A DNA stretch of 64,000 nucleotides from an uncultured Acidimicrobiia bacterium (lineage in GTDB: Bacteria > Actinomycetota > Acidimicrobiia > Spongiisociales > UBA5794). Under the pieces are notes generated by a model. The model ran no database searches, had not been told where the DNA came from, and saw only the letters and a list, made by a program, of their open reading frames with translations. Positions 49,596-61,650 of this stretch are shown in pieces; positions within the stretch are counted from its first letter, which is position 1; every line of letters begins with the position of its first letter. Made by a program: the position numbers and the translations under genes. The DNA lies in assembly GCA_963792405.1 (NCBI GenBank), contig CAWBVU010000005.1:355668-419667 (forward strand), in the 5' to 3' direction.

Positions 49596-50840
49596 CTACC
49601 GATCGAGCTCTCGGGGAACGCCCGAGCTGACGTCGACGACGATGGCTTGCCTCATGACGTCTTCCAGCACAGCACGCATCCGAAAGATCTCGGCGAGCAC
49701 GACGCTATGGGGAACCAGGATCGCCATGAGATCGGCACCCGCTGACATCTCGGCCAGGTCACCGGCGAACTCTGGAACGAGGGGGTCGTACACGACGACG
49801 TCGGCGCCAGCTTCTTGCAGCCGATCTCGGATCGTTAGCGCCGGCGAATTCCGTATGTCGGACACATTCGGCTTGTACGACGCGCCGGCGAGCACCACGC
49901 GAGGACCGTCGACTCCCGCGATGAGGGTCATGAGTACCTCGGCGACACGGCCGGGCCGTCGATCATTCACCAACCGTGCGGTCACGATGAGGGCGCCGTC
50001 ATCCTCCCCGCCAACGAGGAACCACGGATCCACGGGGATACAGTGACCTCCCACGCCGATCCCAGGGATCAGGTAGTTGACGCGCGGGTGACCGTTGGCG
50101 ATCCGAATGGCCTCGAGCGGGTCGACGCCATGACGGTCGGCGAGCTCAGCGATCTGATTGGCCAAGGCGATGTTGACATCGCGGAACGTGTTCTCCATGA
50201 GCTTGCAGAACTCGGCCGTCTCGAGGTTCGTCTCGATCAGCTCTCCCTTCGAGAAGGTCCGGTAAAAGCGCCGTGCTGCTTCCGCCGAGTCCGCATCGAT
50301 CCCCCCGATGACCCGCTCACCTGTAGTCAGCTCCTCCAAGGTTCGACCGGGAAGGATGCGCTCCGGGCAATGGGCGAGGAAGAAGTCGGCCCCAACCCGC
50401 AGGCCGCCCTCTTCGAGTATTGGTGCGACCAATGCCCGACAGGTGCCGGGCGGCACGGTGGACTCGACGATCACCATTGCACCTGAGCGAAGTCTTGGAG
50501 CGACGGAATGTGCGGCCGCAGCGACCATCGAGAGGTCGGGAGTCCTCCCATCCTCGGCCACGGGAGTCGGTACGCAGATCACGAAGACGTCGGACACTTC
50601 GGGCGAGGCGGCACCCCGAAGCTTCTGCGACGATCTTGCCACTTCGAGGAGATCGCCCAGCCCCGGCTCATCGGTCACAGGGCGAGCATCGTTGATGGAT
50701 CGGATGACCTCGGGATTGATGTCGACCGCGAGGACGTCGTGGCCAGCGGCAGCGGCGAGGAGCGCAAGGGGGTACCCCACATAGCCGCAACCGATGACGT
50801 TGACCGTAAGCCCGACCTCGCTGTTGCGGATCACACCCAT
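49596..50840 (-). CDS. Nucleotide-sugar dehydrogenase (UDP-ManNAc / UDP-GlcNAc 6-dehydrogenase, WecC/WbpA-like)
   Basis: Start MGVIRNSEVGLTVNVIGCGYVGYP at 50840. Motifs CVPTP and GVGGHCIPVDP. 414 aa. The upstream 380 codons of ORF 49596..51971 are non-coding. Confidence 0.8.
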   Translation of the reverse strand: MGVIRNSEVGLTVNVIGCGYVGYPLALLAAAAGHDVLAVDINPEVIRSINDARPVTDEPGLGDLLEVARSSQKLRGAASPEVSDVFVICVPTPVAEDGRTPDLSMVAAAAHSVAPRLRSGAMVIVESTVPPGTCRALVAPILEEGGLRVGADFFLAHCPERILPGRTLEELTTGERVIGGIDADSAEAARRFYRTFSKGELIETNLETAEFCKLMENTFRDVNIALANQIAELADRHGVDPLEAIRIANGHPRVNYLIPGIGVGGHCIPVDPWFLVGGEDDGALIVTARLVNDRRPGRVAEVLMTLIAGVDGPRVVLAGASYKPNVSDIRNSPALTIRDRLQEAGADVVVYDPLVPEFAGDLAEMSAGADLMAILVPHSVVLAEIFRMRAVLEDVMRQAIVVDVSSGVPRELDR

Positions 50841-50987
50841 CCCCCAATGACTCCCCCGCGTGCGGAACCATAGCCACGACGTCGCACACGCCTGCCACAG
50901 CCCGGATGCTCGACGCACACGACATGGACGACATGGCGTCTGGCGTCCCCGTATCATCGGGACACAGCAACGGCTTGGGGGGACACC

Positions 50988-52748
50988 TTGTCCGGATGGT
51001 TCAGCGCGATACGACGGTGGCGATACGTCGCTTCGGCCGCCGTCGATTCCTCGTTGTGGTTCGTGGCCCTGTACGTGGCTGCACTGGCACGACTGAACTT
51101 CGAACCGAGCGCCATCGAGTTGGGCGACTACTTCGCCGTGGCGGCAGTGGCCGTCGTGGTACAACTCGTTGGCGGGGTCGCCGACGGCCTCTATCAGGGG
51201 CGGCGGACCATCGCCTCCTTCGGCGAGGTACTCCTCGTCGTCACCACATCGTCCATGGCGGGCATCGCCGCTCTCGCGATGGTGCTCCTCGGAGGATCCC
51301 CGAGCCTCCTGCCGGTGAGTGCGGTCCTCGCCGCAACGGCATATCAGATGCTCGGCGCCCTCGGCGTCCGCTACCTCGGCCGGCTCATCGTGGAGGTGCG
51401 TTCCCGCTCGCGCCACACCCGTGATCACCGAGTCATCGTCTTCGGGGCGGGTGACGCAGGCAGCCAGATCGTCCGTGCCCTCCAGAGGGACCGCACGACG
51501 GACCTCGATCCCGTGGGTCTCCTCGACGATGACCCGACGAAGCGAAGGCTGAGGGTCCACGGCGTGGCCGTCGTGGGCACCCGGGATGACATCGCACGGA
51601 GCGCGACCACCCTCGATGCCACCACGCTCCTCATTGCGATACCAAGCGCCTCCCAGAGCGACATCAACGACATCGCCGATGCTGCGCTCGAGGCGGGGCT
51701 CGCGGTGAAGATCCTGCCCACGCTCGGCGAGCTCACGACGGGGCAGGTACGTGTCGCCGACATCCGCGACATCGAACTCGCCGACTTCCTCAACAGGGAC
51801 GAGGTCACGATCGACGACGAATCCGTTCGGGGATATCTCGCAGGTAAGCGGGTCCTCGTCACCGGAGCGGGCGGCTCGATCGGTTCGGAGCTCTGCCGGA
51901 CGATCCTCCGGTTCGACCCCGCCCGCCTCGTCATGGTGGACCACGACGAGAACGCCCTCCATGCACTCCAACTGAGCATCGAAGGCCGGGCCCTTCTCGA
52001 GTCACCCGACCTGGTGCTGTGTGACATCCGCGACGAGGCAGCGCTGAGGACCGTCTTCGAGACCACCCATCCCCACGTCGTGTTCCACGCCGCGGCGCAC
52101 AAGCACGTGACCTTCCTCGAACGGTTCCCGGATGAGGCCCACAAGACGAACGTTCACGGCACCCGCAACGTGCTCCACGCCGCAGCGGATACGGGAGTGG
52201 AAGCCTTCGTGAACATCAGCAGCGACAAGGCCGCCGACCCGATCAACGTCCTGGGCGAGACCAAGCGGGAGGCGGAGGTCCTCACGGCCCTCATGAACCC
52301 ACCCAACGGTGGGCGCTACCTCTCGGTGCGGTTCGGCAACGTGCTGGGCTCCAATGGATCGGTGATCCCGACGTTCCTGGCTCAGATCGAACGGAACGAA
52401 CCGATCACCGTGACCGATCCCGACGCGACCCGCTTCTTCATGACGACCGCGGAGGCGGTGCTCCTCGTCCTCCAGGCGGGTGCCCTCGGCGAGAGCGGGG
52501 ACGTCCTCGTGCTCGACATGGGCGAACCGGTCAGCATCAACGACCTCGCCGTCCGCCTCTCGAGAAGGCTCAAGCCCGGGGCCGAGCCGAAAATCGTGTA
52601 CACGGGACTGCGTCCGGGGGAGAAGCTCCACGAGGTCCTCGTGTCGCCAGACGACGAGCCGCTGCCACGACCCCACCCACGCCTCCAGCGCTTCCGCGTG
52701 GTGACGCAGGACCTGGAGCCCGAGGCCGTGCCCCCGGGCGCGGTCTAA
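50988..52748 (+). CDS. Membrane-anchored UDP-HexNAc 4,6-dehydratase (CapD/PglF/WbpM family)
   Basis: Four N-terminal TM helices, then the SDR domain VLVTGAGGSIGSEL ... YGETK. Confidence 0.8.
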   Translation: MSGWFSAIRRWRYVASAAVDSSLWFVALYVAALARLNFEPSAIELGDYFAVAAVAVVVQLVGGVADGLYQGRRTIASFGEVLLVVTTSSMAGIAALAMVLLGGSPSLLPVSAVLAATAYQMLGALGVRYLGRLIVEVRSRSRHTRDHRVIVFGAGDAGSQIVRALQRDRTTDLDPVGLLDDDPTKRRLRVHGVAVVGTRDDIARSATTLDATTLLIAIPSASQSDINDIADAALEAGLAVKILPTLGELTTGQVRVADIRDIELADFLNRDEVTIDDESVRGYLAGKRVLVTGAGGSIGSELCRTILRFDPARLVMVDHDENALHALQLSIEGRALLESPDLVLCDIRDEAALRTVFETTHPHVVFHAAAHKHVTFLERFPDEAHKTNVHGTRNVLHAAADTGVEAFVNISSDKAADPINVLGETKREAEVLTALMNPPNGGRYLSVRFGNVLGSNGSVIPTFLAQIERNEPITVTDPDATRFFMTTAEAVLLVLQAGALGESGDVLVLDMGEPVSINDLAVRLSRRLKPGAEPKIVYTGLRPGEKLHEVLVSPDDEPLPRPHPRLQRFRVVTQDLEPEAVPPGAV

Positions 52749-60344: not shown

Positions 60345-60431
60345 CGCACTCCCCTCAAGGTGCTGAGGCTAGACAAGTCGCCGTCCTCAGCTCCGTGAAT
60401 CGGCACCCCTCGACTCAGCATTCGTGCTTTC

Positions 60432-61650
60432 TCACCCAGCCTTGGCGGCTGCGGACCGAAGGACGCGTACGTATTCCGATGCGACTGATACCCAATCAGG
60501 CGGAGGACTCGGAGAAGGGACTCGCCGACTCCCGGCCAGCGTTCGCACTATCGCAAGACCAAGCGCCTCTGCATCCCCCAGCGAATACAGATGAAGGCCC
60601 TCGTCTGATCGGTCACGAACCGGGAGGTCAGACGCCACGACCGGTACATGCACGGCTCGGGCCTCGTGAACACCTAGGTCGAAGGATTCAAGACGGCTTG
60701 TGCTCACGAGCAGGTCGCACTCATGGAACTCTCGGGGCATATCGGAATGGCACACGAAACCCCCAAACTCGACCAGACCCTCAACTCCAGCACCTTTGAC
60801 GCTTGCCAGGACTCCCTCTTGCTCGGCTTCGCTGAAGCCTCCCAGTAGCCGCACCTCAACCCGCCCCTTGTGTGCCGATCTCACGTGTGGAAGAGCCTCC
60901 AGCAGCTCGATGAGGTTCTTGTGGGGGGAGCTGTTGCCAATCCAGAGTATGCGGGCAACTCCCTCTTTCGGGCTGGCACACGAGTCCGGCAGGAACACGT
61001 CATCGATACCGTTCGGAATCAGATGCAACCGCTCGCGAACACGAGGTTCGCGCACAGCGACGAGATCACACGCGTATGCACTCACGCACACTCCGACGGC
61101 CCCAGTCTTCAACGTGCCCAACAGCAGCGCACGCTGAAGACGTCGTTTTAGCTTTGACGACCAAGGCGCACGCCGATCAACCACGAAGTGATGAGCGTTC
61201 TGGACAACCACGGCTTGAGGCACGCCAGAACAGACCAGACCGAATCCTCCAATGCCGAGAATGACATCGCACTCGGCTTCACGTGCGATCGCTGCCAGCC
61301 TTACTTGCTCCCACCACGGTCGCAGATAGGCGAGTCGCCAACCATCCCACCCTGACAAATGTCGCACACGACTGTTCACTTGCGCTTGAAGGAAGAAGGT
61401 CGTCCTTCACTAGCACAACGACATCAACTCCTTCGATCTTGCACAGCCCACCAAGTAGCCCTGCTGCGACCACCAGACCACCTCCGGGAGCCACCGACAG
61501 AGCGTTCATGAGAATGCGCAGCGGCTCTCCAGCCCCCCCGTGAGCACGGAGGGCCTCGGGGACCTCCGACAGCCGTTCACACGCGTGGTTGTGGTTTCCT
61601 ATCACTAGCTTCACCCCATCTGCTGTGACCGCCGCACACGGGACTACCAA
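60432..61650 (-). CDS. GT4-family glycosyltransferase; one frameshift near 61340
   Basis: N-terminus in ORF 61279..61650 (KLVIGNHNHA...RILMNALSVAPGGG). C-terminal GT4 domain in ORF 60432..61379. Confidence 0.6.

Follow-up and report, generated by a model that had tools for sequence, protein, structure and literature searches.

The window, a 64-kb stretch of DNA from an uncultured Acidimicrobiia (Actinomycetota) bacterium, contains a glycan locus for which we examined the core (positions 49596-61650) together with its flanks. The core encodes a Pgl-type gene set, a nucleotide-sugar dehydrogenase, a bi-domain oxidoreductase, a heparinase II/III-like protein and two GT4 glycosyltransferases. Coding frames were set by profile searches and homology rather than by the length of open reading frames (ORFs), spurious ORFs being common because the G+C content of the window is 60-73%. 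All of the gene types named for the core in a preliminary description of this DNA are present, with profile and solved-structure matches far above chance. Single-base insertions and deletions (indels) interrupt several of these genes. It is reasonably probable that this region forms the centre of a locus of ~17.5 kb for a cell-wall or capsular glycopolymer, in which a pgl-type sugar module is combined with a module resembling GnlA/GnlB of Acinetobacter; the locus is probably of the Wzx/Wzy type.

Four genes make up the Pgl-type module. The first encodes a membrane-anchored UDP-GlcNAc 4,6-dehydratase of the PglF/WbpM type (50988-52748, plus strand), which matches PF02719 (E 2e-96, 322.8 bits) and PF13727, has hydrophobic segments visible at the N-terminus of its translation, and has Campylobacter jejuni PglF as its best match in the PDB (242 bits, vs. 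120-136 bits for the inverting or soluble relatives CapD, CapE, and FlaA1). This gene is divergent from the dehydrogenase gene and convergent with the aminotransferase gene, and its placement in the preliminary description is corrected here to the plus strand. The PglE/LegC-type sugar C4 aminotransferase (DegT; 52745-53875, minus strand; PF01041, E 2e-97, 327 bits) matches the PglE structures 1O61 and 4ZTC at 311 and 308 bits, compared with 141 bits for WbpE and 86 bits for PseC; it scores 360 bits against TIGR04181 (LegC family), which is under the cut-off of 420. The PglD/NeuD/PerB-family N-acetyltransferase (53872-54486, minus strand) carries PglD_N (PF17836) and Hexapep (PF00132) domains, exceeds the cut-off of TIGR03570 (NeuD/PglB/VioB family; 196 bits, cut-off 160.8), and matches PerB (127 bits), VioB (106), Neisseria PglB-ATD (96), and PglD (72), all of which act on 4-amino sugars. 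These three genes are intact. The fourth, for a PglC-like small monotopic phosphoglycosyl transferase (PGT; 54479-~55113, minus strand), is frameshifted: as assembled, positions 73-178 of the Bac_transf profile are matched in one frame and the N-terminal half in another, whereas the repaired protein has PglC (8G1N) as its top PDB match, at 187 bits over its full length.

The assignment of these four genes to a Pgl-type route in the preliminary description is thus borne out, with PglF, PglE, and PglC as the best solved matches and the acetyltransferase falling in the PglD/PerB/VioB family of 4-amino-sugar enzymes; profile searches placed none of the four in unrelated families. For all four, the Campylobacter enzyme or its immediate family is the best structural match, and the architectures are those of the C. 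jejuni pgl pathway (PglF/E/D/C), which makes UDP-diNAcBac and transfers the sugar to undecaprenyl phosphate: a membrane-anchored Polysacc_synt_2 protein, a DegT protein, a PglD_N plus LbH protein, and a monotopic Bac_transf protein of ~200 residues. Unlike the C. jejuni system, the window locus is without the oligosaccharyltransferase PglB. Polymerisation, followed by attachment to the wall through an LCP (LytR-CpsA-Psr) enzyme rather than to protein, is the probable fate of the glycan. In addition, the acetyltransferase is nearer to PerB/VioB than to PglD, and the reading frame of the PGT is broken. The PglF-, PglE-, and PglD-like enzymes would make UDP-2,4-diacetamido-2,4,6-trideoxyhexose, a predicted product of the diNAcBac/QuiNAc4NAc type that may be either the gluco (Bac) or the galacto (AAT) isomer and may carry another N-acyl group, and the PglC-like PGT would load this sugar onto polyprenyl phosphate as the priming sugar.

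Adjoining the dehydratase gene is an intact gene for a WecC/Cap5O-like nucleotide-sugar 6-dehydrogenase of the UDP-ManNAc dehydrogenase type (49596-50840, minus strand), which exceeds the cut-off of TIGR03026 (E 7e-111, 370.9 bits). The NCBIfam equivalog models for UDP-ManNAc dehydrogenases come next, under their cut-offs. The WecC-like designation given previously is upheld by the closest solved relatives, which are UDP-ManNAc dehydrogenases (Cap5O, 326 bits; Pyrococcus horikoshii ManNAc dehydrogenase, 297 bits), vs. 168 bits for a GalNAcA-type dehydrogenase. A minus-strand ORF of 791 aa (49596-51971) covers this gene; only its C-terminal ~400 aa, corresponding to the dehydrogenase, are real, and the remainder is antisense to the PglF-like gene.

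The heparinase II/III-like gene (GnlB/WeeF-like; 56224-58222, minus strand) is frameshifted, but when repaired by eye it encodes a protein of 666 aa with Hepar_II_III_N and Hepar_II_III_C domains that matches intact proteins of 650-700 aa end to end; it is 57% identical to one of these, P0001, over 97% of the latter (E 1.6e-230). An AF2 model of P0001 (pLDDT 89.8) was matched by Foldseek to polysaccharide lyases of families PL12, PL15, PL17, PL21, and PL33 (E 2e-22 to 1e-15), and to human dermatan sulfate epimerase 1 (E 1e-12, TMq 0.57). The fold, an (alpha/alpha) toroid with a beta-sandwich, is thus that of secreted polysaccharide lyases. Across 43 sequences, N239/H240, Y289, and H424/H426 (P0001 numbering; Asn-His, Tyr(-His), and HGH motifs) are invariant, spanning actinobacterial and proteobacterial members that share only ~21% identity. 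N239/H240 and Y289 appear equivalent to the Asn-His and Tyr catalytic residues of the lyases. The protein is predicted to be cytoplasmic: by a crude test, in which 15-residue Kyte-Doolittle values over residues 1-70 reached at most 1.46, none of the 43 members showed a signal peptide or a membrane segment. Sequence searches of the PDB gave only weak heparinase III matches for the heparinase-like protein and nothing informative for its GT4 partner. The family is large, with 8,475 clusters at 50% identity (E <= 1e-30), and the module to which it belongs was found in Actinomycetota, Acidobacteriota, and Proteobacteria.

Upstream on the same strand lies the frameshifted gene for the bi-domain oxidoreductase (GnlA/WeeE-like; 58219-60344, minus strand; ADH_zinc_N and GFO_IDH_MocA). 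The repaired protein has ADH_N, ADH_zinc_N, GFO_IDH_MocA, and GFO_IDH_MocA_C domains and is 61% identical to a protein of 727 aa from the metagenomic locus L020 (see below), whereas a scan of genome contigs with the bi-domain protein yielded relatives of at most 42% identity (39-42% in Acidobacteriota and Gammaproteobacteria metagenome-assembled genomes [MAGs]). The EKP motif is preserved in the Gfo domain, and glycine-rich nucleotide-binding loops are retained in both; where zinc-dependent alcohol dehydrogenases have GHE, the MDR domain reads GYSASG. None of the heparinase-like, bi-domain, and GT4 proteins reaches an NCBIfam equivalog cut-off. Two frameshifted GT4 genes flank this pair. GT4a (WcaI/WbuB-like; 55043-56231, minus strand), which is full-length for Glyco_trans_4_4 and Glycos_transf_1 when repaired, sits between the heparinase-like gene and the PGT gene and is the conserved partner of the former. 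GT4b (60432-~61530, minus strand; Glyco_trans_1_4 and Glycos_transf_1) is the one that the preliminary description, delimiting it as 60432-61650, had grouped with the heparinase-like and bi-domain genes; that place belongs to GT4a. The start codon of GT4b is uncertain, there being no canonical start codon in register with the start of its L020 homologue; a run of seven C on the plus strand (G7 in the coding sense) lies at 61533-61539, directly upstream of the likely start.

Between 60344 and 52745, the genes on the minus strand are joined by stop-to-start overlaps, including an ATGA shared by the stop of the bi-domain gene and the start of the heparinase-like gene, and an overlap of the heparinase-like stop with the GT4a start; the run looks like one operon. 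The whole locus recurs in L020 (JGI metagenome 3300076801), which carries P0001 and has the order GT4b, bi-domain oxidoreductase, heparinase-like protein, GT4a, PglC, PglD, DegT, PglF (opposite strand), WecC, LCP, AsnB. Window and L020 proteins are 54-75% identical (PglF-like, 74%; GT4a, 64%), and each gene interrupted in the window has an uninterrupted counterpart in L020.

That the heparinase-like/bi-domain/GT4 grouping recurs in other genomes, as stated in the preliminary description, is confirmed. The heparinase-like gene is directly followed by a GT4a homologue in L020, in Parafrankia discariae (L021), in an actinobacterial MAG (L022), and in Rhabdothermincola (L023); adjacency to a GT4 gene is also seen in L001 and L005, and the bi-domain gene joins the pair in L020, L021, L001, and L005. 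Its neighbours in loci of Acidobacteriota (L002-L004 and L007) are AsnB-like genes. L001, from a Gammaproteobacteria MAG, has the order bi-domain oxidoreductase, UDP-GlcNAc 2-epimerase (PF02350, E 2e-95), heparinase-like protein, GT4, WecC-like dehydrogenase, which points to ManNAcA as the putative substrate of the module; a WecC-like gene accompanies the module in both L001 and L020. In L022 (13139-17054), the heparinase-like and GT4a genes are followed by genes for a PglD-like protein, a PGT, a formyltransferase, a PIG-L deacetylase, and a DegT protein, a set suggestive of an amino-sugar variant that is N-formylated or re-acylated.

The preliminary description saw no chemistry assigned to this grouping, which no longer holds. 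Its two domain architectures are those of the pair called WeeE/WeeF in the emulsan cluster of Acinetobacter venetianus RAG-1 and GnlA/GnlB in A. baumannii K loci, which has been postulated since 2001 to synthesise UDP-L-GalNAcA (PMC9676051, citing Nakar and Gutnick, 2001). The RAG-1 cluster also holds WeeH, WeeI, WeeJ, and WeeK, homologues of PglC, PglD, PglE, and PglF and respectively a PGT, an acyltransferase, a C4 aminotransferase, and a PglF/WbpM-like dehydratase for a QuiNAc4N derivative (PMC3628348). GnlB is listed as PF07940 and PL12-like, with heparinase III (4FNV) as the best structural match, and GnlA is listed with ADH_N, a GH188 match, and a best PDB match covering only 40% of the protein (10.64898/2026.07.20.739706, supplement). 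The annotation of GnlA fits a two-domain protein. GH188 is a family that we take to be of the Gfo type.

Likened by their descriptions, the Acinetobacter wee/gnlAB loci (RAG-1, and A. baumannii K loci with itrA1-qhbA-qhbB-gdr) and the window locus share a WeeB/MnaB-type dehydrogenase, WeeE/GnlA, WeeF/GnlB, and a GT4, as well as a PGT (WeeH/ItrA1), a PglD-like acyltransferase (WeeI/QhbA), a C4 aminotransferase (WeeJ/QhbB), and a PglF/WbpM-like dehydratase (WeeK/Gdr); for both, a QuiNAc4N derivative and GalNAcA are predicted as sugars. The features of a GnlA/GnlB-type module found in the window are the two-domain dehydrogenase, the adjacent heparinase II/III-like protein, and the UDP-ManNAc-type dehydrogenase. 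Unlike the Acinetobacter loci, the window belongs to a Gram-positive member of the Acidimicrobiia rather than to the Gammaproteobacteria, an LCP ligase lies beside the genes instead of Wza-Wzb-Wzc export, there is no WeeA/MnaA 2-epimerase in the window, and the locus includes an AsnB-like amidotransferase. Heparinase-like proteins of actinobacteria are also longer (~660 aa, vs. ~530-550 aa for the proteobacterial homologues, at ~21% identity). No Acinetobacter proteins were among the best 120 matches to the gammaproteobacterial heparinase-like protein, and the supplement of PMC9676051 has no entries for GnlA/GnlB. Literature searches on the grouping of heparinase II, bi-domain oxidoreductase, and WbuB in O-antigen loci, and on C5-epimerases in capsule synthesis, returned nothing useful. 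A partial parallel is the wbg cluster of Shigella sonnei and Plesiomonas shigelloides O17, which combines a 2-acetamido-4-amino-2,4,6-trideoxyhexose (PglF/WbpM-like dehydratase, C4 aminotransferase, small PGT) with L-AltNAcA; there, the amino sugar is the galacto isomer with no N-acetyl group at C4, and we know of no heparinase-like or bi-domain gene in that cluster.

The locus extends beyond the core, leftward through LCP and AsnB-like genes (46461-49502) and rightward through GT4 and Wzy-like genes (61836-64000). Frameshifts were counted by protein-to-DNA alignment allowing frame slips (modelled as skips of 1 or 2 nt), with L020 proteins as guides. The preliminary description noted a single frameshifted GT4; in fact five of the 10 genes in the core (PglC-like, GT4a, heparinase-like, bi-domain, GT4b) are frameshifted, by at least 14 single-base indels, and with the LCP and AsnB-like genes outside the core the total rises to at least 37 in seven genes. 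The PglC-like gene has one frameshift at ~54887, just past the KFRTM motif, and a probable second at ~55058, at the N-terminus. GT4a has five and the heparinase-like gene six, neither with in-frame stops; Pfam fragments of the former lie in three frames, and the N- and C-terminal fragments of the latter in different frames. The bi-domain gene has one (~58855), as does GT4b (~61314), which was aligned to residues 1-327 of the L020 protein. The WecC-, PglF-, DegT-, and PglD-like genes have none relative to L020.

The densest indel patch of the window is the gene for an AsnB-like glutamine amidotransferase (46461-48330, plus strand), which has 17 frameshifts and one in-frame stop; when repaired (GATase_7, and Asn_synthase at profile positions 2-333 of 354), the protein is still 61% identical to L020 AsnB over 608 aa. 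The gene for the LCP ligase (48525-49502, minus strand; PF03816, E 1.6e-22), which adjoins the dehydrogenase gene, is nominally a clean-looking ORF of 553 aa that runs to 47841, and the apparent C-terminal 230 residues are antisense to AsnB, the true stop probably having been lost. Three compensating pairs of frameshifts scramble conserved segments that are restored only by switching frames against the L020 LCP protein; repair raises the profile score from 80.8 to 88.1 bits and the profile coverage from 15-149 to 2-149. The earlier statement that the window encodes assembly and attachment of a glycopolymer accordingly stands only if the indels, at least 37 of them, are errors; in the sequence as it stands, seven genes are untranslatable, namely those for the PGT, the two GT4s, the heparinase-like protein, the oxidoreductase, LCP, and AsnB. 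The G+C fraction is 0.60-0.65 in 54-64 kb, vs. 0.68-0.73 in 36-46 kb, a drop that is consistent with the transferase part of the locus having been acquired horizontally.

From the family and domain assignments, gene order, synteny, lyase-type fold, and invariant residues described above, we infer a candidate pathway for the second sugar. UDP-GlcNAc would be converted to UDP-ManNAc by a 2-epimerase encoded elsewhere, and the WecC/Cap5O-like dehydrogenase would oxidise UDP-ManNAc to UDP-ManNAcA. The bi-domain enzyme would then invert C3 via a 3-keto intermediate, with the Gfo/Idh/MocA domain oxidising and the zinc-less MDR domain reducing, and the cytoplasmic lyase-fold protein would abstract H5, next to the carboxylate, and invert C5. 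The product would be UDP-L-GalNAcA, L-galacto being the 3,5-epimer of D-manno, by a logic like that of GDP-mannose 3,5-epimerase. The translationally coupled GT4a would add the sugar derived from UDP-L-GalNAcA to the lipid-linked priming sugar of the diNAcBac type; WbuB, which GT4a resembles, is presumably an L-FucNAc transferase, and L-FucNAc is 6-deoxy-L-GalNAc. The unit would be extended by GT4b and a further, divergent GT4. Amidation of the uronate may fall to the AsnB-like enzyme, and the polymer would be attached to peptidoglycan by the LCP enzyme. More generally, we tentatively propose, with somewhat more hesitation than conviction, that heparinase II/III-like proteins in glycan loci are cytoplasmic C5-epimerases of UDP- or lipid-linked HexNAc-uronic acid, and that together with the bi-domain protein (redox inversion of C3) they constitute a previously uncharacterised two-enzyme 3,5-epimerisation of UDP-D-ManNAcA to UDP-L-GalNAcA.

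Several observations weigh against this proposal. The assignment of GnlA/GnlB to UDP-L-GalNAcA is itself a postulate, and for the RAG-1 polymer the sources disagree between the L and the D form of GalNAcA (PMC9676051 vs. PMC3628348). L022 and L023 have the heparinase-like and GT4a genes with no bi-domain gene within 10 kb, so the pairing of heparinase-like and bi-domain proteins is not obligatory. The heparinase-like protein might also be a true polysaccharide lyase that is encoded in one operon with the biosynthetic enzymes, in the manner of AlgL and alginate, and that trims, releases, or clears polymer and has no role in precursor synthesis. The top structural matches of P0001 are indeed true lyases (heparinase III at E 2e-22, followed by alginate lyases of PL17 and PL15), with dermatan sulfate epimerase 1 ranking 30th; the lyase-type Asn-His and Tyr residues are invariant; and a preprint on A. 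baumannii, arguing likewise from the lyase fold, ascribes "a different functional role" to GnlB as a suggestion (10.64898/2026.07.20.739706). We nevertheless regard a lyase as improbable: with no signal peptide or membrane segment in the 43 members, the protein would not meet exported polymer, its gene is coupled by overlaps to those of a cytoplasmic oxidoreductase and a cytoplasmic GT4, and the L001 copy lies between a UDP-GlcNAc 2-epimerase and a GT4. The same fold, moreover, serves a known uronate C5-epimerase: human dermatan sulfate epimerase 1 (PDB 6HZN) shares the two-domain lyase-type fold of the heparinase-like protein and shows that this fold is capable of uronate C5-epimerisation rather than elimination, although it works on polymer in the Golgi lumen and is only ~12% identical in sequence.

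A different objection concerns the substrate. The best tblastn hit for a UDP-GlcNAc 2-epimerase in the whole window has an E-value of 0.02 (query, L001 epimerase), PF02350 (Epimerase_2) has no match among the window ORFs scanned, and no such epimerase was found near L020-L023; hence the dehydrogenase could use UDP-GlcNAc, yielding another L-hexosaminuronic acid, namely L-IdoNAcA (inversion of C5 only) or L-TalNAcA (C3 and C5), instead of L-GalNAcA. The below-cut-off scores of the UDP-ManNAc dehydrogenase equivalog models accord with this, but the solved relatives of the enzyme are UDP-ManNAc dehydrogenases, L001 holds a 2-epimerase within the module itself, and the window encodes a TagA/WecG-family transferase, which would imply a cellular pool of UDP-ManNAc; we consider a UDP-GlcNAc substrate unlikely. 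A route of the WbpA/B/E/D type to UDP-2,3-diacetamido-2,3-dideoxy-glucuronic acid, in place of bacillosamine, is highly improbable. All four enzyme classes are nominally present (6-dehydrogenase, Gfo/Idh/MocA oxidoreductase, DegT aminotransferase, hexapeptide acetyltransferase), but the aminotransferase is far closer to PglE than to WbpE, the acetyltransferase has a PglD_N domain and 4-amino-sugar enzymes as its top matches, a PglF-type 4,6-dehydratase and a PglC-type PGT lie within the same block, and no WbpB/WlbA structure appears in the best 60 of 80 PDB matches of the bi-domain protein. This route was rejected, neither a WbpE-type C3 aminotransferase nor a WbpD/WlbB-type acetyltransferase having been found.

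Whether the pathway operates in this organism depends on the origin of the indels, which we judge, with fair assurance, to be most likely consensus errors of metagenome assembly rather than products of natural decay. Over 3166 aligned codons there are 37 frameshifts and a single in-frame stop, whereas neutral decay would be expected to give 5.4-17.3 stops at substitution:indel ratios of 5-16 (P 0.03 to 5e-7), the probability that a stop arises from any one random substitution here being 0.029; the upper ratio, 16, is that between two paralogous copies in the same window. Every event is a slip of one frame, with no larger deletions seen, and the repaired proteins have full-length domains and identities to L020 on par with those of their intact neighbours; 17 frameshifts in one gene of 1.9 kb that is still 61% identical to its homologue would be unusual for a decaying gene. 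The contrary reading, which we consider rather unlikely although it deserves serious weight, is that the frameshifts are real and the locus is a decaying, horizontally acquired island, in which the transferases, heparinase-like protein, oxidoreductase, LCP, and AsnB are pseudogenes and only WecC, PglF, PglE, and PglD are kept, perhaps feeding another locus of the window ("locus I") that has an intact small PGT (11920-12684) as well as intact Ugd and TagA/WecG genes. The indel density is strongly non-uniform (7.6 per kb for AsnB plus LCP, then 0, 3.2, and 0.6 per kb), and the chance of finding no indel in 49596-54486 under a uniform rate is 6e-6. The clean block of 4.9 kb between two dirty stretches comprises exactly the four sugar-nucleotide genes, which is also what selective decay would give; the drop in G+C at 54-64 kb would be expected of an acquired island, and single frameshifts occur in other genes at 33-46 kb.

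Sequence context at the indels bears on both readings. The sites are not enriched in homopolymers (mean longest run 2.46, vs. 2.60 at random positions), and a homopolymer or phase-variation cause was rejected for that reason. Natural slippage and single-base indels are expected to favour homopolymers, which counts against decay; frameshifts at G-runs and other homopolymers are, however, the usual signature of long-read consensus error, and the frameshifts that L020 itself has in other genes (DegT, one; WecC, two; at L020 positions 14949, 17980, and 18047) are all at G-runs, such that the window indels resemble neither typical long-read errors nor those of L020, a point that counts against assembly error. 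Two further points are counted on the side of error: L020 too has frameshifts, in genes other than those broken in the window, and the lineage is one of uncultured Acidimicrobiia absent from the collections. Look-ups of the exact PglD-like and DegT protein sequences found no record, the best match for DinB is 94% identical, and the named matches are MAGs.

To the right of the core, the locus continues with a third, divergent GT4 gene (61836-63053, plus strand; Glycos_transf_1, 118.6 bits), apparently intact, and with the 5' part of a gene for a Wzy_C/O-antigen-ligase-like membrane protein (63514-63999, plus strand; PF04932, a weak match at E 5e-4) that extends past the end of the window. Elsewhere, a segment of ~4.4 kb is directly repeated, nearly in tandem, at a spacing of ~5.3 kb from start to start (35642-40079 and 40969-45400); the copies are 96.9% identical (129 mismatches and eight single-base gaps), each with an NTP_transf_5 (PF14907) gene, an unknown ORF, and an AsnB-like gene, the latter having in each copy one single-base deletion relative to the other (39393, 44321); this could be a recent real duplication or two strain variants assembled in tandem. 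An RmlD-like ORF (33666-34226, plus strand) matches only positions 92-247 of the 287-position profile, so its N-terminal part must lie in another frame and the gene is a further broken one. The Wzz/BY-kinase of the preliminary description is retained in part: the Wzz domain is present (28910-30229, plus strand), but the kinase P-loop region (CbiA/ParA/AAA_31) extends over only the first ~40 residues before the ORF ends, and seems truncated. No frameshifts are evident in 1-24 kb. "Locus I" (714-12684) appears intact and encodes TagA/WecG (714-1553), a GT4, a nucleotidyltransferase, an epimerase/dehydratase, a second GT4, a Calx-beta surface protein of 1057 aa, Ugd (10253-11890), and the second small Bac_transf PGT.

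Glycans with bacillosamine-type sugars and HexNAc-uronic acids are well known, and a near-identical enzyme set has been described in Acinetobacter, such that the locus itself adds little. For annotation it carries a warning, in that at least 37 single-base indels hide seven genes, of which a tool-free reading had spotted one; the choice between sequence quality and decay must be settled before functional claims are made about this organism. The wider interest lies in the bi-domain/heparinase-like/GT4 module, which is very widespread and for which the chemistry has so far been only postulated. The genomic contexts found here, above all that of L001 with its internal UDP-GlcNAc 2-epimerase, give this chemistry a concrete candidate pathway, and the match to dermatan sulfate epimerase supports the same idea. 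If the proposal is true, heparinase II/III-like proteins would be the bacterial equivalent of dermatan sulfate epimerase, with the fold of a polysaccharide lyase as their scaffold.

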